From: a virus | Strand: one strand, 5' to 3' | Virus record (IMG/VR): IMGVR_UViG_3300012685_000002 | Coordinates: 3,411 to 67,410 of that record | Length of the DNA: 64,000 nt | Shown: positions 3,114-21,282 of the stretch, piece by piece | How positions within the stretch are numbered: the first letter of the stretch is position 1 | Layout of the letters: each line of letters starts with the position of its first letter | The notes under the pieces: generated by a model | Databases searched by the model: none | Told to the model about the DNA's origin: nothing | Seen by the model: the letters and a program-made list of their open reading frames with translations, nothing else | Translations under genes and position numbers: made by a program

Positions 3114-3772
3114 AGAGCCTCCTCTGACCAGCCCGGGCTATCAGTCCTGGCCCAGCCCTTGGGCATTCACAACATTGCCGCCACTCGCACTAACTAAGTG
3201 TCCAGGCGCTGCATGTCGCTAGGTCAGCAGTAAGGGGTTTCAGGTAGTAGGAACATGTGATGCTGTATACTACCTGATGTGCTCACAACCTGACAGGCCG
3301 GTAACTCCCGATCCAAGGCTGTGTTGGAGCATACGTGTAACATGTGCACAAGTGGCTCAGCTTGCGTGCAACCCGCAGAGGCCGCTATCTCGTTGCAGCG
3401 AGTAGGCTTCACGGTGAGGAAGCGCCCTGATCTCGTACACCGTAGACATGGCCAGGACACAAGCCATGTTAGAGCAGACTGGGAGGGAAGACTAGCACGG
3501 ACTGTCTAGTGATGTGCACCAGATCTGCACGGTCACCACAGAGCAAGGTCAGTTGCTCGTGCGTGGTAACACGCCAGAGGGTAAGGTGACCAGCATAGTG
3601 CTGTGTCGCTCGTCAGCGAGAGACGCTATTACGTCTCCCTTACCCGTTAAAGCTAGGCTGGGAGTCGCACCCAGCCCCTGCTACCTCAGGACACAATGGC
3701 CCGCCCGCCTACTGGCGCGTTGAGATGGCTCACATTGGACAGGCTCTCGCCTGCACCCTAGCTCTCCAGGGG

Positions 3773-4156
3773 CTAGCCCTGAATCTTGCCCAGGCTGACC
3801 AGCGCAGCCTGAGAGTTGTACTCACCGGCGCCGTACGCTCTGGCCGTCGGTGCTTCGGGGAAGATGGCCAAGAGTGCTTCCTTGGCGCTCTGTGCGTGCT
3901 GCCCGAAGTGTGAACTGCCGCCCTTGATCTCGCTGATCGAACGGCTGTTGGCTTCCCCCAGCAGCTTGCCAGCTGCGTAAGCCCGGGGGAATGCACGCCC
4001 ACGCACGGTGGCCGTGCTGTTGGTCTTGTTGCTCTGATCGTCCGGACCCCGCACCAAGCCAAGCACGTCCCAGAGACGCTTCGTCTCCATCGGGTCGCCG
4101 TAGGTGAAGAACTCGTCCAGCGCTTGCAGAGCGCTCTTCGCGGTCGTTGCAAACAT
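3773..4156 (-). CDS. hypothetical protein
   Basis: start MFATTAK with GGAGG SD. Confidence 0.7.
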   Translation of the reverse strand: MFATTAKSALQALDEFFTYGDPMETKRLWDVLGLVRGPDDQSNKTNSTATVRGRAFPRAYAAGKLLGEANSRSISEIKGGSSHFGQHAQSAKEALLAIFPEAPTARAYGAGEYNSQAALVSLGKIQG

Positions 4157-4446
4157 TACAACCTCCAGTTGGAGTGAATCAGTGGGACCACTGTACTGCA
4201 ACCGCAAACTGGACCATGCGTTACTGCGCTTCGCAGTGTGCACACCGCTAACGCTCCCACCCTTTCCATGAGCTAGGAAAGCCAGGGGCTTTACGGAGAG
4301 CGTTCACCCGCCGTTTCCCTGCTGCAAGCCTTTCTCCTCACGCACAATCCAGTCAATGACGTGCTGGGCCTTGCGCATCTTACGGACGTGGTGGTCTACC
4401 CGCTGCAGCGAATAGAGAGTAGCAGCCGTATCAGGCCCAGCGTTAG

Positions 4447-4732
4447 TAGCAGCGACTGGCTTTGAACCAGTGTCTCTCGGTTGAGACCGAGTGTCCTAGC
4501 AGAGATAACTCCTCAAGCTACAGAGACTTATGATAGCCATGCTATCTAGTCTAGGGTATCGTGCGCCTGCAACTCCCCATCTTGCAACTAGACTCACAAG
4601 CTGTTAAAGCACTCGAAAGCACCACGGTGGGGACCTAACACACCCTCCCAGCTTGGACCTAGCCACTCAAGGGCGACATGAGCACATGGCTCCTCTGATT
4701 CCCTTGCGGGAAACCCGCTAGACGACGCTGCC
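4447..4732 (-). ncRNA. tRNA-Glu-like scaffold RNA with ~215-nt insertion in the D-loop
   Basis: acceptor GGCAGCG/CGCTGCT, D stem GTCT/GGAC, anticodon arm CTCGG-TCTCAA-CCGAG, T arm ACTGG-TTCAAAG-CCAGT. Confidence 0.7.
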
Positions 4733-4739
4733 GTACTGC

Positions 4740-5102
4740 CTACTTCCCGATTGCCTTCTTCAGCTTCTCGCGCAGCTTGCCCTTCGGGCTGTCCGCGCCG
4801 CTAACGATCCGACTCCGGAGATCCGCGTTGAGCCAGCCCTTAGCTTTGCGGGTCTCACTGATGCGGAACGTGCCCTTGCCTTCGATGAAGGCCACAGCGC
4901 TGATGGGGCAGAAGTCTCCGCCCGCATCCTCCCTGATCTTCTGTCTGGCCAGCTCGGCCACCTCACCGTTGACCACCGTGCCACCGATGCGAAGCTTTAG
5001 TGCCTCTGGCCGTATGGTCGCACGAAGCGTACCGCCTTGAACCGTCCACTTCAGGTACGCGGTGGTCTTGCTCAGCGCCTTCAGAAAAGATTGCAACGTC
5101 AT
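4740..5102 (-). CDS. basic hypothetical protein
   Basis: start MTLQSFLK with GGAGG SD; lies between two tRNA-like RNAs. Confidence 0.75.
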   Translation of the reverse strand: MTLQSFLKALSKTTAYLKWTVQGGTLRATIRPEALKLRIGGTVVNGEVAELARQKIREDAGGDFCPISAVAFIEGKGTFRISETRKAKGWLNADLRSRIVSGADSPKGKLREKLKKAIGK

Positions 5103-5125
5103 GATTCCTCCCGGGTTGAACTGCA

Positions 5126-5261
5126 TAGCCAAGCAAGGATTCGAACCTTGATCTCCCACCAGAGAGGCGGGGGTCCTCGGGAACAGTCCTGCATTTAAGT
5201 AGTGTGCCACCAGTTCCCCTATGCTATCATCAGCAATAGCATACCCTTAGACGACTCGGCC
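5126..5261 (-). ncRNA. tRNA-Glu-like scaffold RNA with ~65-nt D-loop insertion
   Basis: acceptor GGCCGAG/CTTGGCT, D stem GTCT/GGAC, shortened anticodon loop TCTCT, T arm CAAGG-TTCGAAT-CCTTG. Confidence 0.72.
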
Positions 5262-5270
5262 AAGATACAG

Positions 5271-5380
5271 TTGCCTCAGCAGGACTCGAACCTGCGACCT
5301 TCCATGTGTGACCGCGTGCAGTTGCTGTCCTCATGCAGGGCGGTATTGAATGGACGCTCTACCAACTGAGCTACGAGGCA
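5271..5380 (-). ncRNA. tRNA-like RNA with 44-nt structured anticodon loop (intron-containing tRNA or scaffold RNA)
   Basis: acceptor TGCCTCG/TGAGGCA, canonical D arm GCTC-AGTTGGTA-GAGC, anticodon stem TCCAT/ATGGA, T arm GCAGG-TTCGAGT-CCTGC. Confidence 0.8.
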
Positions 5381-5433
5381 GTGGTGGGCCGCAGCTTGCG
5401 CTGCTTTATACCGGTAACCGGAGCCCGTTACTG

Positions 5434-5715
5434 CTAGTAGCGGTCGCCGTTCAGCGGCGCCCCCACCTTGATCCCACCGACGGTGGCTTCCGCCCACGTC
5501 AGGTCGTTCGTGATCTTGCGGACCTGCTGCGCCCGGAGCGACACGGCGGTCAGCAGATCGCTGGCCGTCTTGAAGACCGTCGCTTGCTGTTCGTTCGTCA
5601 CGAACTTGAACTTCCCGTTCGGCTGCACCTGCACGTACTTCTGCGTGCTGACCTGGTGGACCCGCCAGTTCGGGTGTGCGATGCGCCGTGCGGGCTTGGT
5701 GCACAGGACGTACAT
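5434..5715 (-). CDS. hypothetical protein
   Basis: ORF with GAGGA SD, typical codon usage. Confidence 0.7.
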   Translation of the reverse strand: MYVLCTKPARRIAHPNWRVHQVSTQKYVQVQPNGKFKFVTNEQQATVFKTASDLLTAVSLRAQQVRKITNDLTWAEATVGGIKVGAPLNGDRY

Positions 5716-5916
5716 TGACTGTTCCTCTCTGCAGAGGTTCGCTGCGTTATGGTGGACACCTGAGCTAGGAACGCAGCCCTGCCCTAGCCATGTCTGGGTT
5801 GCTGTAGAGCACGCATGCGGTAAACAGGCCTAACATAAGTAGGCCCATCAGCAGCATCGCGAAGACCGCTGCGAGCAACGCAAAGCGCTTGTGTCGTGAC
5901 ACTCCTGCCCTCCCCT

Positions 5917-7908
5917 CTACTCCCAGCTTCCTGCCTCTCTAAGCTGAGCAGTAACGTCGTGTGGATCTGGTATGGCAGCAGGCGGTAAGGCGTGCCTGCT
6001 GGGTTCTGGGACCTTCTGATTGTCCAACGCCTCCTTGACCCGAATCTCGTACCACTGCACGAGTTCGTGGCTCTCCTTGCTGTGTGTCGTGCAGGGCGAG
6101 ACATAGGGCAGCATGCAGCCCCGGGGATACTTCGGTGCCGCTTGATTGAGCGGGAGTCGTGAGTGCTTCCACACTCCGTTCTGACGTGCGGCGACGATGT
6201 TGTTGCTGCACTGGCTGCAGTGATGCACGCACACCGTCACCTCAAGTGCAGGAATCTCTTGATGGACAGTGCCCGTAAGAGCCTTGGGCTTGACTCGCAC
6301 GCGACTGTGTGTGGCAAAGCTGCAGGTATCTGCATGCTGCCCATTGTTGACGGTGAGGTTGTAGTAGCACTCGCTGCAAAAGCCGTCACCTTCGGCCCTT
6401 GTCCCACGCTCACCACCCCAGTCTGGGCAGATGATGCTGTGTCCATCAGCGATCTTGCGGTGACAGTAGCCGCACAAGTCAGGCTTGTTCCAGATGCACT
6501 GCGGCTTGTGGTTGGGCAGCAGCTCAGCGCACGTCTCGCAGGTGCGCTGTGGTGTGGGTAGTGAACGAACATTCCCCTTGCCGCCCGGAACACCCACCGA
6601 GAATGCCCCATCGTTGGGACACTCCGCCTTGTGGACGTATGTGTTACGACAGGACGGGCAGGGCGAGTGAGCAACAGCGGCCTTCTCGCACTCCGTGCAC
6701 GATGCAGCGATAGGCTTTCCGTGCAGACAAACGCGCACCTTGCCGGTAGCGGCCCGGCTGGGGCGCTTGTGGCACCACAGCTTGTGTTCCTCGACGGGCG
6801 CAAGCTCCGCCGCGCCGCAGTAGCACAGAACGTCGTCCCTGTTCTGGTAACTGTCGGCCATCGGTGTGGCTGCTGGCAGCAGCAACAGCTGGTGTTCCTT
6901 GTCCGCTGCCAGCTCCGGAGGGTAAATCTTATCGAGCATCCGCACCGCTTGCCACCGCTGGATCTTGGCCTTCTCCACGAACTTCCGCACCTTGGCGGCC
7001 AGCTTCTTGCGCTTCTTGCCGCTGATGGTGGCCAAGTCGATCTTGTCTACCTCCTTGATCAGCTCCTCCACATCGGAGACGAACATGCTGCCGACATGGT
7101 AGTAGCTGACGCCGCCGTACTGCGTCACCGGCGCGTAGGTCCGTGCACGGAACTTGAACTGTTCCAGCTTGTCCAGCTTGAGCAGCTTCTTGAGTACGGT
7201 GCGCGTGTGCATCCAGGCGCCGAGCAGCAGCATCTCCCCATCGCTGTGCTCGTGCCAGAAGCCCGCCGAGAGGTTCACGCCGCACAGCAGGATCTCGCCG
7301 CAGATGTGGCGGATGTCTGTGCTGCTGCCCTCGAACTCCCGCCACGGCTTGTTCTCGAAGTCGAACTTGCTGAGCGTGGACGTGATGAACGCCTTGAACT
7401 TGTCCGTGCCGACATCGTAGAACACTGCTTGCCGGTCACCACGCCGGTCTACCTGGACCGCGAACTGGTGCTTCTCCAGCTCCTTCTTGATGTCCTGCAC
7501 CGCTGCACGGGCGCCCACCAGTCCACGCTCTTCACCGGTGGTGACGAGCAGGGAGTGAGAGCCATCCCACAGATCGTACATCAACGCACACCCAGCACGG
7601 TCATCAGCGCCGAGTGGGCCACTGGCGACAGCACCCTTGCCCCACCCACCGCCGGACTGCCCACCGATGCGGCAGCACACATCGCCGATCCAGAGCAGAT
7701 CGTTGATGGGCTTGTCTTCGTGTACCGTGTCAGCATGGGCCACGCACAACACACGGTCAGGCCGCTTGCCGGGGATGTAGACCCACTTGAAGCCCGGCTC
7801 TTTGTTCCGGATCGCTCCTGGCAGCTTGAGGAACTTCGCCACCACCTCATCTTCGGTGGGACGCAGGAAGTTCTCCAACAGCCGCTGCTGTTCTGTCAGC
7901 TTGATCAT
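5917..7908 (-). CDS. M28/M20-like zinc metallopeptidase with C-terminal Cys/His Zn-finger repeats
   Basis: AHADTVH, LGADDRAG, GEERG, DRRG, GSSTD and EHS motifs; repeated CxxC..HxxxC. Confidence 0.8.
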   Translation of the reverse strand: MIKLTEQQRLLENFLRPTEDEVVAKFLKLPGAIRNKEPGFKWVYIPGKRPDRVLCVAHADTVHEDKPINDLLWIGDVCCRIGGQSGGGWGKGAVASGPLGADDRAGCALMYDLWDGSHSLLVTTGEERGLVGARAAVQDIKKELEKHQFAVQVDRRGDRQAVFYDVGTDKFKAFITSTLSKFDFENKPWREFEGSSTDIRHICGEILLCGVNLSAGFWHEHSDGEMLLLGAWMHTRTVLKKLLKLDKLEQFKFRARTYAPVTQYGGVSYYHVGSMFVSDVEELIKEVDKIDLATISGKKRKKLAAKVRKFVEKAKIQRWQAVRMLDKIYPPELAADKEHQLLLLPAATPMADSYQNRDDVLCYCGAAELAPVEEHKLWCHKRPSRAATGKVRVCLHGKPIAASCTECEKAAVAHSPCPSCRNTYVHKAECPNDGAFSVGVPGGKGNVRSLPTPQRTCETCAELLPNHKPQCIWNKPDLCGYCHRKIADGHSIICPDWGGERGTRAEGDGFCSECYYNLTVNNGQHADTCSFATHSRVRVKPKALTGTVHQEIPALEVTVCVHHCSQCSNNIVAARQNGVWKHSRLPLNQAAPKYPRGCMLPYVSPCTTHSKESHELVQWYEIRVKEALDNQKVPEPSRHALPPAAIPDPHDVTAQLREAGSWE

Positions 7909-14258: not shown

Positions 14259-14506
14259 GAGGCTCTGTCCGAGAAGCAGCGCACCCAGCAAGCGTATTTG
14301 CTGTCGTAATCATCATCCACCGCAATCGGAAACAGCTCGCCCTTCTTCACGTCTCTCTTCTTGTCGTCTTGAAGAGCCTGAAAATAGTCCACTCGGGTGT
14401 ACTTCCACACGACCCCTTCGTTGTCCAGCGCGAACAGTCCAGATGGGCCAACGCTGATCTGGATAAATCTTGATGTCCCGGCAGGATCTCTTGGAATGAT
14501 TTTCAT
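14255..14506 (-). CDS. small hypothetical protein between the polymerase halves
   Basis: QISVG..LFALDNEGVVWKY beta-propeller-blade-like motif; starts 1 nt after the stop of the pol N-half. Confidence 0.7.
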   Translation of the reverse strand: MKIIPRDPAGTSRFIQISVGPSGLFALDNEGVVWKYTRVDYFQALQDDKKRDVKKGELFPIAVDDDYDSKYACWVRCFSDRAS

Positions 14507-14507
14507 A

Positions 14508-16094
14508 TTATTGCCCTCTCGCCCACCGCAGCACCTTCTTCAATGCGGTAGCGTCAGTGGTGATCTTGTTATTCCAGATGTTCTTGGGGGCCCCAATGGC
14601 CTCGTACAAGAAGGTCTTCATCTGCGCAGGAGAGTATGGATTGAAGTGGTACGCCGTGAGCTTGCCCGTACCGCTACAACGTACACAAGGATGGAGCGTC
14701 GCTCCGATCTTCTTCCCGGGCTTCTTAGCGTAACCTGCGCAGCGCCAACACGCTTGGCGGCTGACTGTCCCGCCCCCGCAGCAATCACAGCGCTTCTGCC
14801 GAGCAAACGCTGCCACTCCTTCGCGTTGAATGTAGCGAAGGCCTTCACCTGCGCTGATCTCTTTCGCAGCTTCTGCGCGGGCTTGTAGGGTAGATAGACG
14901 ATGGTGCTGGAGCTCGACATTGATCCGTACCCCTTTCAGTTGCATCTCTACCGTTGCGGGGTAGAGAGATGTGGCGAGTTCGTACTGGGCTTGGCAGCCT
15001 GCGGCCTCCATCTCGGGGAGCATACAGGCAGCCAGCCAGCGCGTGACGTAGGCATCGTTCCCGTTCAAGATGAACATCTTCTCGTTGTGCTGGGGATCAT
15101 CCGGGAGTGGATAGTCCTTCCACCAGGGCAAGTTGAAGTAGAGGGAGGCGAGGAACGCGAGGCCCTTGCGGCTCATACGGCTGGGCGTAATCGCTTTATC
15201 TTCTTCGTCCGTGTCACCAGATCCCGCAAGGTCAGGCTCCAGAGCCCACCACATTTGTTGTGTGTCGTGATGATAGTGACGTACACGGAGATCATAGAAG
15301 AGTCGCATCGCTGGCACGTCGAACCCAGGTCCGTTGTGTCCAACTTTCGGCACGTCGGACAGAAGAATCTGCTTCCCGTATAGGTCAAAGTAGTGTCCCC
15401 ACATCGCTACATACGGTTGCATGTCGTCTCCGCAGAAGCCGCTGCAGAGCAGTGCGGTCATGTCCCACTTCGTCTCAATGTCCCACGCCACCAATCGAGA
15501 GTGAAGAATCTTCTCCACTTGGGCTTGGGTCTGGAGACGGAGGGGTACCGGGAACGCATCACGGGGTAGATCACCAGCAAGCCAGCGTCTACCTCGACGG
15601 AGATCCATTCCCAGTAGATAGCGCCCTGGCGTAGGCTTGCGGAGCACTCCAGCGGGATGGAGGGTGGTGAGCACCAGACCGTCCGGTGTGTCCCAGAAGT
15701 AACCACGACGGTCTTCGATACCTTTGGCTCCAAGGATACCCCGCCCGGCAGTCGGCCATCGAGTACCGAGACAGGCGTATGATGCCTCGTTGCCGAGCGT
15801 GATAGTAAGGCTAGGCCGGAGTCTTCGACGGAGCTGTTGAAGCTGCTCAACTCCTTCAAGTACTCTTCCGGGCTCGTGAGCTTTGAAGTCGTTGGCCGGG
15901 GGACGCCAGCCACAGACGTTGGCGATGTTGACATCTTGGCGTCGGAGTCCGACGCTTCCGAGGACGGTGTCGAGGAGTTCCCCGGCTCGTCCAATGAACG
16001 GTCGTCCTTCACGTTCTTCATCCTCCCCAGGATCACGTCCAATCAACAGGATGTGTCCCGGCTCTGGGTGGTTGATCTCTGGCGGTACGAACAT
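14508..16094 (-). CDS. DNA polymerase N-terminal subunit: uracil-DNA glycosylase-like domain + 3'-5' exonuclease + thumb with Zn finger
   Basis: GRDPGEDEEREGRPFIGRAG and TLHPAGVLR (UDG family 4/5-like); WDIET, HNGPGFD, NGND exonuclease motifs; CxxC pairs; FNPYSPAQ. Confidence 0.88.
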   Translation of the reverse strand: MFVPPEINHPEPGHILLIGRDPGEDEEREGRPFIGRAGELLDTVLGSVGLRRQDVNIANVCGWRPPANDFKAHEPGRVLEGVEQLQQLRRRLRPSLTITLGNEASYACLGTRWPTAGRGILGAKGIEDRRGYFWDTPDGLVLTTLHPAGVLRKPTPGRYLLGMDLRRGRRWLAGDLPRDAFPVPLRLQTQAQVEKILHSRLVAWDIETKWDMTALLCSGFCGDDMQPYVAMWGHYFDLYGKQILLSDVPKVGHNGPGFDVPAMRLFYDLRVRHYHHDTQQMWWALEPDLAGSGDTDEEDKAITPSRMSRKGLAFLASLYFNLPWWKDYPLPDDPQHNEKMFILNGNDAYVTRWLAACMLPEMEAAGCQAQYELATSLYPATVEMQLKGVRINVELQHHRLSTLQARAEAAKEISAGEGLRYIQREGVAAFARQKRCDCCGGGTVSRQACWRCAGYAKKPGKKIGATLHPCVRCSGTGKLTAYHFNPYSPAQMKTFLYEAIGAPKNIWNNKITTDATALKKVLRWARGQ

Positions 16095-16806: not shown

Positions 16807-16986
16807 CCGTTGATGCTTCACAACTCTTGCCTCACAAGAGGGTCTGGGAAGGGTGGCAGACTGGTGGAGGCAGGCGGAGCGGGGGGCTTGCCTACCGTGC
16901 GTGTTGTATCTGCCCTTTCGCACAGTACAACCAGCGGGGCCGACTTCCCATCAGACGACGTACCGCCTTACGCGGTGTACTGTGAG

Positions 16987-17057
16987 TTGGAGAGGTAGGA
17001 GTCGGACCCACATTCGACGGTTCAAGGCCGTCTGTCCTGCCATTGGACGACTCTCCA
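16987..17057 (-). tRNA. tRNA-Gln(TTG)
   Basis: cloverleaf; GACGG-CCTTGAA-CCGTC; C33; T loop TCCGACT. Confidence 0.88.
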
Positions 17058-17060
17058 GTA

Positions 17061-17129
17061 CAGCGAGTCTAGGTGTCGATCCCAGGACGGCAAGTTTTGG
17101 AGACTCGCCTGTACGCCGGTACACTCGCT
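17061..17129 (-). tRNA. tRNA-Trp(CCA), truncated D arm
   Basis: acceptor AGCGAGT/ACTCGCT; loop CTCCAAA; D arm GTAC-CGGC-GTAC. Confidence 0.75.
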
Positions 17130-17132
17130 ACA

Positions 17133-17204
17133 TGCAGCAACTAGGAATCGAACCTAGTCTCTCACCCATGTCAAGGGTGCGCGTTCCCATCTCGCTCTTG
17201 CTGC
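17133..17204 (-). tRNA. tRNA-Val(GAC)
   Basis: CACCC-TTGACAT-GGGTG; canonical T arm. Confidence 0.88.
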
Positions 17205-17633
17205 TCAGTAATCGACGATCAACTTGCCCTTCAAGTGATCGAGCTCGTGGAGCAGGACTCTCGCCATCAGTCCTGTGGCGTGGATCTGTTCCCAGAGACC
17301 GTCCACGCTGCGGTAGTCCACGATCACTTCCAGCGACCGCTTCACCGGCTTCGTGATCCCAGGGAGGGAGAGACAGCCTTCCTCCTGTTTGTTCCGGTTG
17401 ATCGACTGGGCCCGGAGATGCGGGTTGATCAACGCCAGCTTCTGGTTCTCGATGTTCACCACGATCACTTGCACCGGCTCGCCCACCTGGATCGCGGAGA
17501 GTCCTACGCCGATCCCTTCTACTGTCTCGAACATGTCGTCGATCAATGTCCGAACCCCGTCGTCGATCTCCTTGAGCGGAAGAGACTTCCGACGGAGTGC
17601 CTTCATATCGAACTCTACGATGGTGCGCTTCAT
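17205..17633 (-). CDS. def: peptide deformylase
   Basis: GVGLSAIQVG, EGCLS and HELDH signature motifs. Confidence 0.95.
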   Translation of the reverse strand: MKRTIVEFDMKALRRKSLPLKEIDDGVRTLIDDMFETVEGIGVGLSAIQVGEPVQVIVVNIENQKLALINPHLRAQSINRNKQEEGCLSLPGITKPVKRSLEVIVDYRSVDGLWEQIHATGLMARVLLHELDHLKGKLIVDY

Positions 17634-17635
17634 AG

Positions 17636-17709
17636 TGGAGGCATGGGGATTCGAACCCCAGTCGCTAGTTTGCGGGACTAGCATAATGCCCAGACTATAC
17701 GATACCCCC
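17636..17709 (-). tRNA. tRNA-Ala(CGC)
   Basis: G3:U70 pair; CTAGT-CCCGCAA-ACTAG; C33. Confidence 0.9.
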
Positions 17710-17713
17710 AAGA

Positions 17714-17916
17714 TGTGTGTTCCGTAGCCGCGATTCTGTTTTATCCCGTCATCTGTCTAAGCCCCAACCCGGGGTTCTCTAGGGTCAAGCGATCCCCTGT
17801 TTGGGTTGCAGCATTGCCGTGGTGCGAACCGCTACCCGCACTGCTTGGCGTCCCACGTCCCCATTGCTGTCGCGAACTTCCTCAGGTCTCTCGACCCGCG
17901 ACGGGTCGAACACACA
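17714..17916 (-). ncRNA. rnpB: minimal RNase P RNA (catalytic domain; reduced S-domain; no P18)
   Basis: CR-I GAGGAAGTTCGCG, CR-IV TAGACAGATGAC, CR-V AACAGAATCGCGGCTA; P1, P2, P3, P4, P5, P7 and P15 pair by eye. Confidence 0.9.
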
Positions 17917-17917
17917 G

Positions 17918-17990
17918 TTGGGGGAGCAGGGGTCGAACCTGCACTCTCCGGGTTCAGAGCCCGGCGTGTTGCCAGTTACACCATCCCTCA
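17918..17990 (-). tRNA. tRNA-Gln(CTG)
   Basis: CCGGG-CTCTGAA-CCCGG. Confidence 0.92.
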
Positions 17991-17991
17991 G

Positions 17992-18063
17992 TCTGGCTAC
18001 CGGGAGTCGAACCCGGACTAAGAGGATCGGAGCCTCTCGTGATGTCCGTTTCACTATAGCCAA
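17992..18063 (-). tRNA. tRNA-Arg(CCG)
   Basis: AGAGG-CTCCGAT-CCTCT. Confidence 0.9.
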
Positions 18064-18064
18064 G

Positions 18065-18136
18065 TCCGGCTGGTGGGAGTCGAACCCACACTGAAAGGTT
18101 CGTAGCCTTTCCGTCTCTCCGTTAGCTTACAGCCGA
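18065..18136 (-). tRNA. tRNA-Arg(ACG)
   Basis: AAAGG-CTACGAA-CCTTT. Confidence 0.88.
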
Positions 18137-18137
18137 G

Positions 18138-18210
18138 TTGGACTCCACGGAATCGAACCGCAGCCTGCTGCTTTTCAGGCAGCCGTGCGCACCAGCTACA
18201 CCAGAATCCA
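18138..18210 (-). tRNA. tRNA-Phe(GAA)
   Basis: GCTGC-CTGAAAA-GCAGC. Confidence 0.9.
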
Positions 18211-18211
18211 G

Positions 18212-18280
18212 ACCGCTCGGAGGGACTCGAACCCTCATTGCTCCGGTAGAAACGGAGTCGCTGTCCATCAGCACGAGCAG
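18212..18280 (-). tRNA. tRNA-Arg(TCT), short D arm
   Basis: CTCCG-TTTCTAC-CGGAG. Confidence 0.82.
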
Positions 18281-18281
18281 A

Positions 18282-18536
18282 TTAGTGACGCTCTCGCCAC
18301 CAACAGCTGGTGGGGCGTCCGATCACTGCTTCCCCGTATACCTTCCGTGTGACGAAGCACACCATCACGGGGCTTCCTACTGCTTGCAACCAATACGCTT
18401 CGGTCCCGGTTCCATCATAGCTCCGTGGCCAGTAGGCACGTACAGGGCAGCTGGGGCTCGACACGTCTGGACAGTAGCCCATGTCCTTCACTGTCAGGCC
18501 CTGTGTCATCAGGAGAGCTGCGAGCCAGGTCCACAT
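18282..18536 (-). CDS. inter-tRNA hypothetical protein (84 aa)
   Basis: exactly fills the gap between tRNA-Asp and tRNA-Arg. Confidence 0.6.
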   Translation of the reverse strand: MWTWLAALLMTQGLTVKDMGYCPDVSSPSCPVRAYWPRSYDGTGTEAYWLQAVGSPVMVCFVTRKVYGEAVIGRPTSCWWRERH

Positions 18537-18537
18537 A

Positions 18538-18611
18538 CGCGACTGGAGGGATTCGAACCCTCGCTCTTCTCCGTGACAGGGAGATGGCTTGGACCGCTAG
18601 CCGACAATCGC
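18538..18611 (-). tRNA. tRNA-Asp(GTC)
   Basis: TCTCC-CTGTCAC-GGAGA; G73. Confidence 0.92.
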
Positions 18612-18641
18612 ATTGAGATAGTTTACTGTCATATCTCAGGA

Positions 18642-18734
18642 CTATGTTCTCTTCACTACTCCACAACGACACAACCAGTACCGACTTGCACCCCACGGAT
18701 AAATAATCCGTGTCCACCAATGTTTGTGTTTCAT
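18642..18734 (-). CDS. inter-tRNA micro-ORF (30 aa, MKHKHWW...CRCG)
   Basis: ATG 2 nt after tRNA-Ser discriminator; HxH..W..CxCG motif as in ORF 9205..9612. Confidence 0.5.
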   Translation of the reverse strand: MKHKHWWTRIIYPWGASRYWLCRCGVVKRT

Positions 18735-18736
18735 AG

Positions 18737-18819
18737 CGGAAGGTCAGAGACTCGAACTCTGGAACCCGTTAGGGCCAGCGGTTTTCGGGACCGTTTCCTC
18801 GACCGGCCGGACACCTTCC
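18737..18819 (-). tRNA. tRNA-Ser(CGA)
   Basis: loop CCCGAAA (C33); variable arm; G73. Confidence 0.85.
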
Positions 18820-18821
18820 AT

Positions 18822-18908
18822 TTATTGCGGCTGTGCGCTCGCTCCACCATGATCTTCAGGAGCATCTGACAACTCTCGCCATCTACGCACAGCTTCATCT
18901 GTTGTCAT
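18822..18908 (-). CDS. inter-tRNA micro-ORF (28 aa, MTTDEAVRRWRE...)
   Basis: fills gap between two tRNA-Ser genes. Confidence 0.45.
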   Translation of the reverse strand: MTTDEAVRRWRELSDAPEDHGGASAQPQ

Positions 18909-18909
18909 A

Positions 18910-19000
18910 CGGAGCGTCCAGGATTCGAACCTGGGTGGGGCCTCTGTGAGACTCCTCTGCGTTAGCACCGCAGCGCATTCAACCGCTCTGCCAACGCTCC
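18910..19000 (-). tRNA. tRNA-Ser(GCT)
   Basis: CTGCG-GTGCTAA-CGCAG; long variable arm. Confidence 0.92.
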
Positions 19001-19003
19001 AAG

Positions 19004-19083
19004 TCGTGGACCTAGGGTTCGAACCTAGCATGCCGAAGCGTCTGGTTTACAGCCAGGTGGGACACCGTAGTCCCTTGTCCACG
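19004..19083 (-). tRNA. tRNA-Tyr(GTA), C1:G72
   Basis: loop CTGTAAA; acceptor CGTGGAC/GTCCACG; short V arm. Confidence 0.87.
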
Positions 19084-19086
19084 AAG

Positions 19087-19158
19087 AGCCAAGTGCGTGA
19101 CTCGAACACGCGCTCCCGGTTTACGAAACCGGCGGTCTACCTGTTAACCTAACGAGGC
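19087..19158 (-). tRNA. tRNA-Thr(CGT)
   Basis: CCGGT-TTCGTAA-ACCGG; acceptor mismatches at pairs 4 and 5. Confidence 0.85.
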
Positions 19159-19310
19159 GTAAGCTTCTCGAACTTCTTCAGCACATCCTTGAGCTTCTTC
19201 AGCCGGACTCCCTCTGCCACCTGCACGGAGAGTCCATTTCGAAGCGCGTTGCCATAGGCCACGCTGGTCTCTAGCACCAGCTCTCGGATCTGCTGCATCG
19301 TCAACTCCAT
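19149..19310 (-). CDS. inter-tRNA small protein (53 aa, MELTMQQIRELV...)
   Basis: ATG 2 nt after tRNA-Asn; phage-like codon usage; stop overlaps tRNA-Thr 5' end. Confidence 0.6.
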   Translation of the reverse strand: MELTMQQIRELVLETSVAYGNALRNGLSVQVAEGVRLKKLKDVLKKFEKLTPR

Positions 19311-19312
19311 AA

Positions 19313-19384
19313 CTGGGACCGGAGGATTCGAACCTCCATCTCAGCGGGTAACAGCCGCGTGACTTGCCATTCGCCCAGATCCCA
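19313..19384 (-). tRNA. tRNA-Asn(GTT)
   Basis: loop CTGTTAC; G73. Confidence 0.87.
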
Positions 19385-19385
19385 A

Positions 19386-19460
19386 TGCAGTCAGGAGGAT
19401 TCGAACCTCCACTTGTACCACCTTCTCAGGATGGCCCGTATACCGTTCCGGCATGACTGC
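19386..19460 (-). tRNA. tRNA-Leu(GAG), no long variable arm
   Basis: CCATC-CTGAGAA-GGTGG; 7-nt variable region. Confidence 0.85.
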
Positions 19461-19463
19461 GAG

Positions 19464-19537
19464 TCGTCGGTCGAGGATTCGAACCCCGTGTCCCCGGTTT
19501 ATCAGACCGGTACTCCTACCATTCGAGCTGCCCGACG
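19464..19537 (-). tRNA. tRNA-Ile(GAT)
   Basis: CCGGT-CTGATAA-ACCGG. Confidence 0.88.
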
Positions 19538-19540
19538 AAG

Positions 19541-19613
19541 TTGGCCGCGTGGGCAATGATCCCACAACCTATCGGTTAAGAGCCGATTGCTCTGCCAGTT
19601 GAGCTAGCGACCA
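19541..19613 (-). tRNA. tRNA-Lys(CTT)
   Basis: ATCGG-CTCTTAA-CCGAT; atypical T loop ATCATTG. Confidence 0.88.
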
Positions 19614-19614
19614 G

Positions 19615-19698
19615 TGCACCTGGGAGGAGTTGAACCTCCATGACCTTGCGGTCACTGGTTTCTGAGACCAGTCTGTCTGCCAGTTCCAGCACAGATGC
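19615..19698 (-). tRNA. tRNA-Leu(CAG)
   Basis: CTGGT-CTCAGAA-ACCAG; V arm TGACC-GCAA-GGTCA. Confidence 0.92.
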
Positions 19699-19768
19699 AT
19701 GATCGGTGGGCCGCTAAGCCCTACTCCCTGCCGATCCAGGTAGACGGTAATGAGCCGTCGGGCCCGAG

Positions 19769-19839
19769 AGCTAAGAGCAGGAATCGAACCTGCGCTAGCT
19801 GCTTACCAAGCAGCTGGTCTACCACTAACCTATCGAAGC
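19769..19839 (-). tRNA. tRNA-Thr(GGT)
   Basis: GCTGC-TTGGTAA-GCAGC; acceptor mismatches at pairs 4 and 5. Confidence 0.87.
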
Positions 19840-19842
19840 AAG

Positions 19843-19915
19843 AGCCAGAGGACGGAGTTGAACCGTCACGATCCGCATTACAAGTGCGGCTTGGCATCCC
19901 GATAGCCGCTCTGAC
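19843..19915 (-). tRNA. tRNA-Thr(TGT)
   Basis: CCGCA-CTTGTAA-TGCGG; atypical D arm. Confidence 0.8.
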
Positions 19916-19964
19916 GTGAAGCCCACCGATCCGCAGACCAGGGGCTAGTCTCTTCTATGTACAG

Positions 19965-20037
19965 TGCTGCTCGAAGGACTCGAACCTTCAGTCAGCTGGG
20001 TTTGAGCCAGCCCCGTCTACCGTTGCGGCAGAGCAGC
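19965..20037 (-). tRNA. tRNA-Leu(CAA), no long variable arm
   Basis: GCTGG-CTCAAAC-CCAGC; 5-nt variable loop. Confidence 0.86.
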
Positions 20038-20044
20038 AATGCTA

Positions 20045-20185
20045 CTACTTCTTCCCAGCGTGCTTGAAGTACTCGACCTGCCGTTCCCGCTTCACTGCGG
20101 CGGCCTTGCTCCCAGGCTTCGAGAGGGGCTTGCCGGTCTTCTTGCTCTTCAGAACGAACTTCCCGCCGGTCTTCACGATGGTCAT
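20045..20185 (-). CDS. small highly basic protein (46 aa, ...AVKRERQVEYFKH)
   Basis: AAGGGGA SD, tandem TAG stops, phage-typical codon usage. Confidence 0.75.
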   Translation of the reverse strand: MTIVKTGGKFVLKSKKTGKPLSKPGSKAAAVKRERQVEYFKHAGKK

Positions 20186-20207
20186 ACATTCCCCTTGCAC
20201 AGGTGAG

Positions 20208-20280
20208 TCAGGAGCAGGGGATTCGCACCCCTGTCTGGACCTTGAGAGGGTCCTGTCCTAGGCTCCTAGACGAGCCCCTG
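20208..20280 (-). tRNA. tRNA-Glu(CTC)
   Basis: GGACC-CTCTCAA-GGTCC; T loop TGCGAAT. Confidence 0.86.
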
Positions 20281-20281
20281 A

Positions 20282-20355
20282 TGGCAGAGGAGGGAGTCGA
20301 ACCCTCGGATTCCAGTTTATGAGACTGGCGCAGGAGCCGTGCCTGCTCCTCTGCT
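20282..20355 (-). tRNA. tRNA-Met/fMet/Ile2(CAT)
   Basis: CCAGT-CTCATAA-ACTGG; 1:72 mismatch. Confidence 0.82.
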
Positions 20356-20359
20356 CTAG

Positions 20360-20431
20360 TTGGCCGACTGGGACTCGAACCCAGACCTTACCGCTTAAAA
20401 GGCGGATGTGCTGCGTTCACACTATCGACCA
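20360..20431 (-). tRNA. tRNA-Lys(TTT)
   Basis: loop CTTTTAA; canonical T arm. Confidence 0.88.
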
Positions 20432-20432
20432 G

Positions 20433-20504
20433 TTGGAAATCAGGGGATCGAACCCTGGGCCTCTCGGATGTGAGCCGAGCGCTCTACCGCTGAGCTAATC
20501 TCCA
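20433..20504 (-). tRNA. tRNA-Val(CAC)
   Basis: CTCGG-CTCACAT-CCGAG. Confidence 0.92.
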
Positions 20505-20505
20505 G

Positions 20506-20577
20506 AGCATCTGGCGGGTGCTGCCCCCGCTGCTTCCACCTTGGCAAGGTGGCAGTCTGCTGTTGACTTACAGATGC
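20506..20577 (-). tRNA. tRNA-Gly(GCC)
   Basis: CCACC-TTGCCAA-GGTGG; U73; T loop GGCAGCA. Confidence 0.85.
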
Positions 20578-20669
20578 AGTACCCGCGTTTAATGAGGTAG
20601 CGGGGATCTCAGGACGAGAACCAGGGGCACCATCGCGAAGCTGTTTACCGTGAGTCGCGATCTCACTCA

Positions 20670-20740
20670 AGCACCAGGCGGGAATCGGACCCGCGTGTCA
20701 AGTTTGGAAGACTTGCGCGCAGCCACTACGCCACTGATGC
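20670..20740 (-). tRNA. tRNA-Gly(TCC)
   Basis: CAAGT-CTTCCAA-ACTTG; U73. Confidence 0.86.
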
Positions 20741-20743
20741 ACA

Positions 20744-20815
20744 TGGGAGAGGAGGGTTCCGACCCCTCTTCTGGAGTTTGAAGGACTCCTGTCCTAGCCA
20801 GTAGACGAATCTCCC
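20744..20815 (-). tRNA. tRNA-Glu(TTC)
   Basis: GGAGT-CCTTCAA-ACTCC; C33; T loop GTCGGAA. Confidence 0.82.
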
Positions 20816-20817
20816 GG

Positions 20818-20888
20818 GGTGCTGTACGGGGTACGATCCCGTTCCTGAGCCTTCACAGGGCTCAATGCTTCCATTACACCACCAGCAC
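20818..20888 (-). tRNA. tRNA-His(GTG)
   Basis: GAGCC-CTGTGAA-GGCTC; C73; no encoded G-1. Confidence 0.85.
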
Positions 20889-20890
20889 AG

Positions 20891-20962
20891 ACAGTAGGGT
20901 GGGGATCGAACCCACGTTGCTGGGTTTGCAGTCCAGCGCCTGAACCACTCGGCTACCTACTG
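20891..20962 (-). tRNA. tRNA-Cys(GCA)
   Basis: loop CTGCAAA; U73. Confidence 0.9.
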
Positions 20963-20965
20963 AAG

Positions 20966-21037
20966 TCAGTGATGCAGGAGTCGCACCTGCCTGATCGTGC
21001 TCCCAAAGCACGCGCCTGTCTGCTAGGCTAATCACTG
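20966..21037 (-). tRNA. tRNA-Pro(TGG)
   Basis: CGTGC-TTTGGGA-GCACG. Confidence 0.88.
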
Positions 21038-21206
21038 AAGGTGACCACTTCATTCGTAGGCTGGTCACCCACCCACGCCAGTTCGTTTCGGACGACTGGC
21101 TATCCGATAGAGGAGGAGGAGAGGAGGCGTTGCCGCCCGCTTCTGCCGGTGAGTTACCCCATCCAGCATGTTGTATATCTGCCCGGGGCAGAGTCTCCGT
21201 GTCGAG
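21038..21206 (-). ncRNA. putative structured ncRNA with CCUCCU-rich tract
   Basis: several hairpins between two tRNA-Pro genes; no convincing ORF. Confidence 0.45.
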
Positions 21207-21282
21207 TCGGGGCTGCTGGAATCGAACCAGCCTGATGCCTCGCTTCCGAAGCGAGTGGCCCGAGCCTTGAGCCCGAACCCCG
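21207..21282 (-). tRNA. tRNA-Pro(CGG)
   Basis: CTCGC-TTCGGAA-GCGAG. Confidence 0.86.

Follow-up and report, generated by a model that had tools for sequence, protein, structure and literature searches.

What is made from a phage gene that has the whole cloverleaf of a glutamate tRNA and, inside its D-loop, a folded insert of 217 nucleotides (nt)? The question is raised by a locus that we call RNA1, at positions 4447-4732 on the minus strand of a 64,000-nt stretch of soil phage DNA. This stretch, referred to throughout as the window, covers bases 3411-67410 of the complete 67,410-base-pair (bp) virus record IMGVR_UViG_3300012685_000002, in which direct terminal repeats are present. The reading that we favor, held with about as much doubt as conviction, is that RNA1 and its paralogue RNA2 are phage-specific RNAs derived from tRNA-Glu(CUC), which would be stable, non-decoding mimics that keep the D-loop insert as a permanent arm and act off the ribosome. 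The argument is carried by relatives. There are 22 genes of this RNA type in 6 phages, and comparison of their shells and insertion sites shows both to be under purifying selection, with abundant compensatory change.

The RNA1 cloverleaf and its D-loop arm

Read from 4732 to 4447, RNA1 is a complete tRNA-Glu(CUC)-like cloverleaf of 286 nt in which CCA is not encoded. The 5′ strand of its acceptor stem, GGCAGCG (4726-4732), forms seven of seven pairs with 4448-4454, including G1·U72, and is connected by TC (RNA positions 8-9) to the 5′ strand of the D stem, GTCT. The latter is followed by the D-loop residues AGCGG (4715-4723 together with the strand), which comprise A14 and the GG that in tRNAs normally contacts the T loop. 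On the far side of the insert, parsing of the shell gives A21 with the 3′ strand of the D stem, GGAC (4493-4497), a single A, the anticodon arm CTCGG-TCTCAA-CCGAG (4476-4491), a 4-nt variable region AGAC, the T arm ACTGG-TTCAAAG-CCAGT (4455-4471), and the 3′ acceptor strand CGCTGCT with the discriminator A (4447-4454). All four stems (7-bp acceptor, 4-bp D, 5-bp anticodon and 5-bp T) are fully paired, and every helix of RNA1 is supported by covariation with its relatives. RNA1 has all the features of the shell, namely G1·U72, A73, U8, A14, GG, A21, U11-A24, the 4-nt variable region and a UUCRA T loop. It departs from a canonical tRNA in that the strands of its D stem lie 223 nt apart, outside the usual D-loop size of about 7-11 nt, and in that its anticodon loop, TCTCAA, keeps CUC but has only 6 nt, where a canonical loop has 7 nt, with U33 and, at position 37, a purine.

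The insert occupies 4498-4714 (RNA positions 19-235), between the GG and A21. It holds a first hairpin, TTCCC-GCAA-GGGAA (4699-4712), which is unique in the window, and a larger domain closed by CAGAG (4693-4697) pairing with CTCTG (4500-4504). The core of this second domain (4562-4686) has a helix 4681-4686/4562-4567 that includes GUGC/GCAC, a helix 4676-4678/4568-4570 and a hairpin 4669-4675/4641-4647. A further small helix within 4525-4551 pairs 4549-4551 with 4525-4527, as seen in comparison with the relative L097 introduced below. The initial annotation of this locus, which proposed a tRNA-Glu-like shell with a large structured insert in the D-loop, had listed the shell elements, the hairpin and the closing helix; all of them are present on the minus strand.

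The 6-nt anticodon loop is real and is no assembly slip, since it is identical in two independent soil runs and the only indel of a third soil strain, which is about 94% alike over 4359-4507, falls at 4442, outside the anticodon loop. The same strain has T>C at 4471 and A>G at 4455, by which the first T-stem pair changes from A-U to G-C. The earlier judgment that decoding is unlikely on account of this loop thus holds for the RNA1 copy.

Neither ARAGORN nor Rfam calls a tRNA or a transfer-messenger RNA (tmRNA) on full-length RNA1 at threshold. The Rfam tRNA model RF00005 reaches 12.9 bits on RNA1, over the 3′ part only and against a gathering threshold of 29 bits. One family member does pass that model: L101:1132-1275 scores 41.5 bits, its D-loop GG being followed by an insertion of 74 nt. 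When the insert was removed in silico, ARAGORN called a tRNA in 12 of 12 family members, nine of them as Glu(ctc), compared with 0 of 12 at full length. The insert itself matches no Rfam family at E-values up to 10 in a search of 321 nt with lax filters; besides the 3′ tRNA part, only a trivial hairpin match was returned. A match to a known Rfam family, which the initial annotation named as counting against its reading, was thus not found, and the statement that the layout corresponds neither to tmRNA nor to a group I intron of tRNA stands, the insertion site being the D-loop. Folding energy does not single RNA1 out (z = -1.44; 12 of 200 shuffled sequences fold as well), so the case for RNA1 rests on its relatives.

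Relatives and what they conserve

Direct searches did not lead to relatives. A blastn search with 4300-5500 found no match in 50,697 phage records, and viral-contig searches with the 120-amino-acid (aa) open reading frame (ORF) next to RNA1 alone, or with the neighboring peptidase alone, returned no relative. Relatives of the portal protein were short fragments far from the RNA1 locus, a tblastn search with P0004 gave only distant peptidases, in 16 phage records, and the exact pattern of the odd RNA1 anticodon arm occurred nowhere in viral or metagenome contigs. Relatives were reached through an alignment of 13 peptidase homologues, which yielded 11 viral and 80 metagenome loci. In L017, a 67,978-bp contig with a peptidase 39% identical to that of the window, synteny extends as far as the last three tRNAs of the tRNA array, and genes like RNA2 and RNA1 lie at 14261-14363 and 14470-14732, respectively. 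L020, whose peptidase is 45% identical, has orthologues of RNA2 and RNA1 at 5985-6141 and 6941-7091. A closer relative, L097, was found by the shared pattern of anticodon and T arms; its flanking genes have 68-87% nucleotide identity to those of the window, and its orthologues lie at 285-426 (RNA2) and 500-796 (RNA1). RNA2 is upstream of RNA1 in all four phages. This GC-rich group thus has members in relatives whose neighboring peptidase is only 39-45% identical.

The family was gathered with our own scanner and with sequence patterns rather than with a covariance model, so that more distant members may have been missed. The scanner was strict, requiring 7/7 acceptor, 5/5 T-stem and 4/4 D-stem pairs. 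With a D-loop of more than 14 nt it gave 18 hits in 886 kb of loci, compared with 4 in mononucleotide shuffles of the same DNA; four of the 18 repeat the window through L001; three rows each belong to L007:1418 and L017:14261, as alternate parses of a single element; and two look spurious. The latter, in L072 and L078 (402-nt D-loop), were dropped. All eight paired genes were recovered, plus three in L007, which is part of a 172,542-bp AT-rich phage. A further pattern scan raised the count for this phage to 13 and added one copy from a 224,466-bp phage, which together with two copies each in the window, L017, L020 and L097 makes up the family. In one genome per species from 185,579 prokaryote species, two sequence patterns found no arm-bearing member; the second pattern had six matches, namely three normal-length tRNA-Glu genes and three sequences that are not tRNAs.

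Ordinary tRNA-Glu genes of a similar kind occur near or outside the family. The three prokaryote matches (L110, L112 and L113, on contigs of metagenome-assembled genomes of Pirellulaceae and Bryobacterales) are normal-length tRNA-Glu(CUC) genes with G1·U72, A73 and the loop CUCUCAG, and by the two patterns they are the only such genes among the 185,579 species genomes. Two of the three contigs are 62-68 kb long, about the size of a phage genome; these genes may hint at the host, or the contigs may be binned phage. In the 224,466-bp phage, a normal tRNA-Glu(CUC) with G1·U72 (L098:317-391) lies about 0.9 kb from the arm-bearing copy (L098:1258-1370), which has an insert of about 40 nt and an anticodon loop of 8 nt. 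This suggests that arm-bearing genes arise from phage tRNA-Glu genes of this kind. A more distant relative (L006 and L021), whose peptidase is 39% identical, has a lone ordinary tRNA-Glu(UUC) (L021:11993-12067) some 1 kb downstream of that gene, at approximately the place that RNA2 and RNA1 occupy in the window.

Conservation of the shell was tabulated over 21 members, L098:1258-1370 being left out for its 8-nt anticodon loop. A MAFFT alignment of the six RNAs found first was unusable inside the arms, and shells were parsed by fixed positions from both ends. In 21 of 21 members all seven acceptor positions and all five T-stem positions are paired, with up to five and up to six pair types, respectively; the window pair A4-U69, for example, is G-C in L097. 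These compensatory changes bear out the proposal that the 5′ and 3′ parts of RNA1 close into one cloverleaf. G1·U72, C3-G70, U11-A24, G53-C61, U8, A14 and A73 are invariant (21/21), A21 and a 4-nt variable region are found in 20 of 20 parsed members, and GG directly precedes the insert in every member. The anticodon loop is CTCTCAG in 13 members, which are the 13 copies of the 172-kb phage and have the canonical loop, and CTCTCTG, with U37, in six GC-rich members, among them the RNA1 orthologues of L097 and L020. The other two are TCTCAA in window RNA1 and, in the L017 orthologue of RNA1, a long hairpin with a 10-bp stem and a 20-nt loop. RNA2 of the window (5126-5261, minus strand) has the same shell as RNA1, a 66-nt arm and the loop CTCTCTG.

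From this table, the nucleotides behind the tRNA L-shape (U8, A14, GG, A21, G53-C61 and the UUCRA T loop) are shown to be kept, and so is the D-arm part of glutamate identity, with U11-A24 invariant, a 4-nt variable region, and U13·G22 in the GC-rich group. The portions of PMC9976931 that treat glutamate identity name U11-A24, U13-G22:A46 and a missing residue 47 as major elements, plus U34, U35, C36 and A37. Of these, the D-arm set and U35-C36 are retained in the family. G1-C72, as in E. coli tRNA-Glu, is not.

The insertion site is identical in 22 of 22 members, in the D-loop after GG and before A21, and the insert is always folded, with a helix closing its base. Its length ranges from about 30 to 224 nt: arms of the RNA1 line measure 217, 224, 170 and 81 nt, those of the RNA2 line 66, 72, 33 and 87 nt, and those of the 172-kb phage mostly 70-75 nt. 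Arms are alike only between close relatives, and distant members are unrelated in arm sequence. The arms of window RNA1 and its L097 orthologue are homologous, with identical blocks of 11-13 nt. In a structure of 49 pairs, partly derived from these two sequences, all positions are paired in both and 11 are doubly compensated, compared with 0-1 in slid controls. The closing helix CAGAG/CTCTG becomes CGAAG/CTTCG in L097, with two of five pairs doubly compensated. In the core of domain 2 all pairs are kept and three are doubly compensated, as are two of the three pairs of the small helix. At the site of the first hairpin, L097 has an 8-bp hairpin of different sequence; in the columns shared, one pair is doubly and one singly compensated. 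L017 retains the first hairpin of the window arm as well as the GUGC/GCAC helix, the latter as CGTGCT/AGCACG and closing the domain there. The insert is accordingly no unconserved remnant, being homologous and structurally conserved in L097 and partly so in L017.

A three-tier hairpin, conserved in the letters of its internal loops, is common to ten copies from the 172-kb phage; 40 pairs are predicted in these copies, of which 30 show double changes, and 19 of those 30 lie in the arm. By its substitution pattern the arm is a selected structure, yet no single sequence is conserved across the family. An extended D helix proposed by RNAalifold (columns 14-17 with 244-247) was rejected: it is impossible in L017, L020 and RNA2, and double compensations are seen at two pairs of the closing helix, with which it competes.

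A proposed tRNA-Glu mimic and its rivals

In the mechanism that we propose, RNA1 would be transcribed together with neighboring genes, because 7 nt separate its start from the preceding stop codon and because a sigma-70-like promoter and a minus-strand terminator were looked for in 3600-6200 and neither was found. The enzymes that process tRNA ends would cut it out and CCA would then be added, after which the RNA would persist at full length, with the arm in place. The arm would leave the D-loop just after GG, at the variable pocket of position 20, which in tRNAs points away from the core. Glutamyl-tRNA synthetase (GluRS) would recognize the RNA, and no codons would be read. That it does not decode is argued by the degenerate anticodon loops of 3 of 22 members (among them RNA1 with its 6-nt loop), by the L017 orthologue without an anticodon loop, by U37 in the GC-rich group, by the normal tRNA-Glu(CUC) already present in the phage tRNA array (20207-20280), and by the 13 copies in one phage, all of them CUC. 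The arm could serve as a handle for a partner or as bulk that keeps the mimic off the ribosome, and the RNA itself, as a look-alike of tRNA-Glu, might draw off a host factor directed against that tRNA or might carry activated glutamate.

By architecture, the closest known relative in kind is RNA C of phage T4 (rnaC, species 1 RNA; NC_000866, 70908-71046), on whose model RNA1 would persist. It is likewise encoded by a phage beside tRNA genes and is annotated as a 139-nt small stable RNA. Its T arm (CCGGG-TTCGAAT-CCCGG) is canonical, an acceptor-like helix spans 7 positions, the place of the anticodon arm is taken by a hairpin whose loop has 6 nt, and the D region forms a long hairpin. It differs in lacking the GTCT/GGAC D stem and the CUC loop, and two of its acceptor positions are U-U. 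Moreover, its hairpin replaces the D arm, whereas the arm of the present family leaves an intact D-loop at position 20. The relevant passage of PMC3014915 describes the roles of T4 RNAs C and D as unknown.

A second comparison is with the normal tRNA-Glu(CUC) of the array. It shares with RNA1 the D arm TC-GTCT...A-GGAC, CUC with U33, the 4-nt variable region, the T arm and the lack of an encoded CCA. It differs in its D-loop (9 vs. 223 nt), in its first pair (C1-G72 vs. G1·U72) and in having a normal anticodon loop, where RNA1 has six residues and the sister copies have U37.

Several points weigh against the mimic. The search of sequencing runs gave four DNA soil runs and no RNA run, and the size, ends, CCA addition and retained arm of the RNA are predictions from the gene sequence. 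Charging by GluRS is likewise predicted, and the family has G1·U72 where E. coli tRNA-Glu has G1-C72; in 6 of 21 members U37 stands in place of the A37 determinant. A GluRS domain (PF00749) is found in one of the three complete genomes, that of the 172-kb phage, with no candidate in the genome of the window and none in the 224-kb phage. The loop consensus CUCUCWG, present in 19 of 21 members, fits decoding as well as it fits recognition by a protein. Thirteen of the 21 tabulated shells are paralogues from a single genome, and the 49-pair arm structure was drawn in part from the same two sequences, window and L097, in which its pairs were counted. As arms are homologous only among close relatives, an arm partner common to the whole family is doubtful. 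Finally, the analogy to T4 RNA C is one of architecture only.

Three other explanations were weighed against this one. The initial annotation took RNA1 for a natural tRNA scaffold, in which the shell would only stabilize an arm that is a functional RNA (decoy, antitoxin, guide or ribozyme, to which an aptamer may be added) and have it processed out. The part of that claim concerning a shell with a structured D-loop domain was confirmed; that the shell exists to carry a payload is the weaker reading, because shell and insertion site are conserved across 22 members while the cargo changes in length and sequence. We consider such a carrier unlikely, although it has arguments in its favor. The RNA1 arm is large and has several helices, with compensatory changes and identical 11-13-nt blocks between window and L097, the hairpin of the 172-kb phage keeps fixed internal-loop letters in 10 copies, and differing arms on one shell within a genome would suit a set of payloads. 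However, a fixed CUC loop, U11-A24, 4-nt variable region and G1·U72 go far beyond what processing needs, and arms may be as short as 33 nt (L017 RNA2) and unrelated between distant members. The identity of the window and L097 arms is also not above that of neighboring genes (68-87%), the insert has no Rfam family, and antisense matches in the phage genome do not exceed 12 nt; across the rest of the window, RNA1 has its longest complement, of 12 nt, on the gene-free strand. Laboratory tRNA scaffolds, in which a tRNA shell likewise protects and processes an inserted structured RNA, replace the anticodon stem, whereas in the natural family the insert sits at D-loop position 20 and the anticodon arm is still present.

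If instead the gene were an interrupted tRNA-Glu gene, a protein endonuclease and an RNA ligase would remove the insert and leave a tRNA-Glu(CUC) of 72-73 nt. The ARAGORN calls after removal in silico, the constant site, and conserved flanks around a variable insert are all what introns would give; intervening sequences in the D-arm region of tRNAs exist in archaea (bulge-helix-bulge introns) and plastids (the trnG group II intron), and archaeal tRNA introns are reportedly found at non-standard positions. Yet the inserts (33-224 nt) are too small for self-splicing and match no group I or II model of Rfam, and no bulge-helix-bulge-type pairing between shell and insert is conserved across members. 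The archaeal motif has two 3-nt bulges, spaced by 4 bp, where the flanking shell meets the insert. An exon-insert helix can be drawn in window and L097; L017, L020, RNA2 and the AT-rich members allow none. The bacterial host also speaks against it, as does the structure of the arm, which is itself under selection. No RNA ligase, RtcB or splicing endonuclease appeared in the 30 of 55 ORFs of at least 80 aa that were scanned (28 with Pfam, 8 of these also with PHROGs, and 2 with PHROGs only). After removal RNA1 would still have its 6-nt loop, the L017 orthologue no anticodon loop and the GC-rich group U37, and 13 genes with one anticodon in one phage would be odd for a decoder. An intron is for these reasons quite improbable in our view. 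Still more doubtful is the idea that these elements are processing punctuation, that is, RNase P and RNase Z marks between cistrons, or decaying pseudo-tRNAs. They do lie between same-strand genes with very short spacers, such as the 7 nt between stop codon and RNA1 or the 4-10 nt before each ORF in the 172-kb phage, and neither a promoter nor a terminator was found nearby. However, decay is excluded by pairing in 21 of 21 members with compensatory changes and invariant tertiary nucleotides, and punctuation alone explains neither why the CUC loop is fixed and the D arm of glutamate type, nor G1·U72, nor the conserved folded arm.

Within the favored reading of a non-decoding mimic, a far-reaching version can be imagined, to which we lend little credence. 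The mimics would be the RNA half of a phage-run glutamate system independent of the ribosome: charged by GluRS and barred by the arm from EF-Tu and the ribosome, they would pass glutamate to a non-ribosomal acceptor or soak up a host immune factor that attacks tRNA-Glu, each arm being matched to a small partner protein. Such arm-specific partners are suggested by the 172-kb phage (G001; L099, L100 and L101), an IMG/VR record in which each of the 13 genes lies 4-10 nt ahead of a small ORF of 69-107 aa. These ORFs are paralogues from a single orphan family, marked near the C terminus by a motif like FNSRRYAIQ-FKK and without a Pfam or PHROG match, and the layout looks like repeated modules of RNA plus protein. 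The GluRS-type gene of this phage (G001:C1:153317-154150; L103/L104) is a 491-aa ORF with a GluRS/GlnRS catalytic domain that scores 128.6 and 112 bits with PF00749.

It had also been suggested that RNA1 is a plausible substrate of an RNase P without S domain. This tie is not general, as neither of the two large phages, the one with 13 copies and the one with a single copy, gives an RNase P RNA match to RF00010 or RF02357. Among the three complete genomes RF00010 has no match and RF02357 matches only that of the window, where an RNase P-like mini RNA of 203 nt (17714-17916, minus strand) scores 40 bits with this archaeal type T model (E = 1.1e-8), below the gathering score of 60. A segment of L017 (37-146) is about 80% identical to the 3′ half of this RNA, and the L017 homologue covers at least that half. 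With two large phages lacking a detectable RNase P RNA, the family is therefore independent of such an enzyme, as far as RF00010 and RF02357 can see.

Two other RNAs with tRNA-like parts may be set beside RNA1. In tmRNA, too, a large internal domain is enclosed by ends that fold into a tRNA-like acceptor and T-arm domain, but it lacks the anticodon arm and D stem and has a tag reading frame and pseudoknots, whereas RNA1 has both arms and an insert inside the D-loop. YrlA (RF02553) is a Y-RNA-like noncoding RNA with a tRNA-like module that also occurs in phages; it is the Ro-binding stem that is built from its two ends, with the tRNA-like part lying inside, unlike in RNA1. RF02553 has a chance-level hit adjoining RNA1, at 16.2 bits where the gathering score is 69; RNA1 itself has no hit.

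Phage tRNA-like stable RNAs have been known as a kind since T4 RNAs C and D. The present family has apparently not been described before: full-text literature searches, whose coverage does not extend to the T4 RNA papers of the 1970s, gave no description of phage tRNA-like RNAs with a D-loop arm. Its design is precise, with a glutamate-type shell, one fixed insertion point in the D-loop, interchangeable folded arms and up to 13 copies per genome, and it gives experimenters clear handles on what such mimics do. For annotation, it matters that standard tRNA finders miss all of these genes, as the ARAGORN result at full length illustrates. For RNA engineering, D-loop position 20 appears to tolerate inserts of 30-220 nt in nature.

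Gene neighborhood and phage genome

The minus strand holds nearly all genes of the window, including those for portal, terminase, a UDG-fused DNA polymerase, peptide deformylase and an M28-like peptidase, and ARAGORN finds 30 tRNA genes on it at 16986-21282, with no call at 4447-4732. Judging by its genes, the host of the phage is bacterial, since it has a peptide deformylase gene and Shine-Dalgarno sites. The 120-aa orphan ORF between RNA2 and RNA1 (4740-5102, minus strand) has GGAGG ahead of its ATG, and it is this ORF whose stop codon precedes RNA1 by 7 nt. A homologue search with it returned only the ORF itself, and it is absent in L097 and L017.

The peptidase has a Cys-rich tail and lies at 5917-7908 on the minus strand, with counterparts at G001:C1:142663-145797 in the 172-kb phage and G002:C1:58147-58809 in the 224-kb phage. 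Such a peptidase is found in every complete genome carrying the RNA family, including one that was reached solely through an RNA pattern; of the other phage loci with this peptidase, most are without these RNAs.

Next to RNA2, at 5271-5380 on the minus strand, is a tRNA gene (52.7 bits with the Rfam tRNA model) with a 37-nt structured insert in its anticodon loop, removal of which would leave a Val(CAC)-type loop. This gene is absent from L097, where RNA2 directly follows the upstream ORF. Joints seen in soil reads at 5299-5356 do not reflect splicing; they come from ordinary tRNAs of other organisms that match the D and T arms of this tRNA. On the other side of the locus, the last nine letters around the 3′ end of RNA1, GCTGCTACT, are repeated about 30 nt downstream (4400-4446, minus strand), and the 90 nt directly after RNA1 in this region are about 94% conserved in another soil strain.

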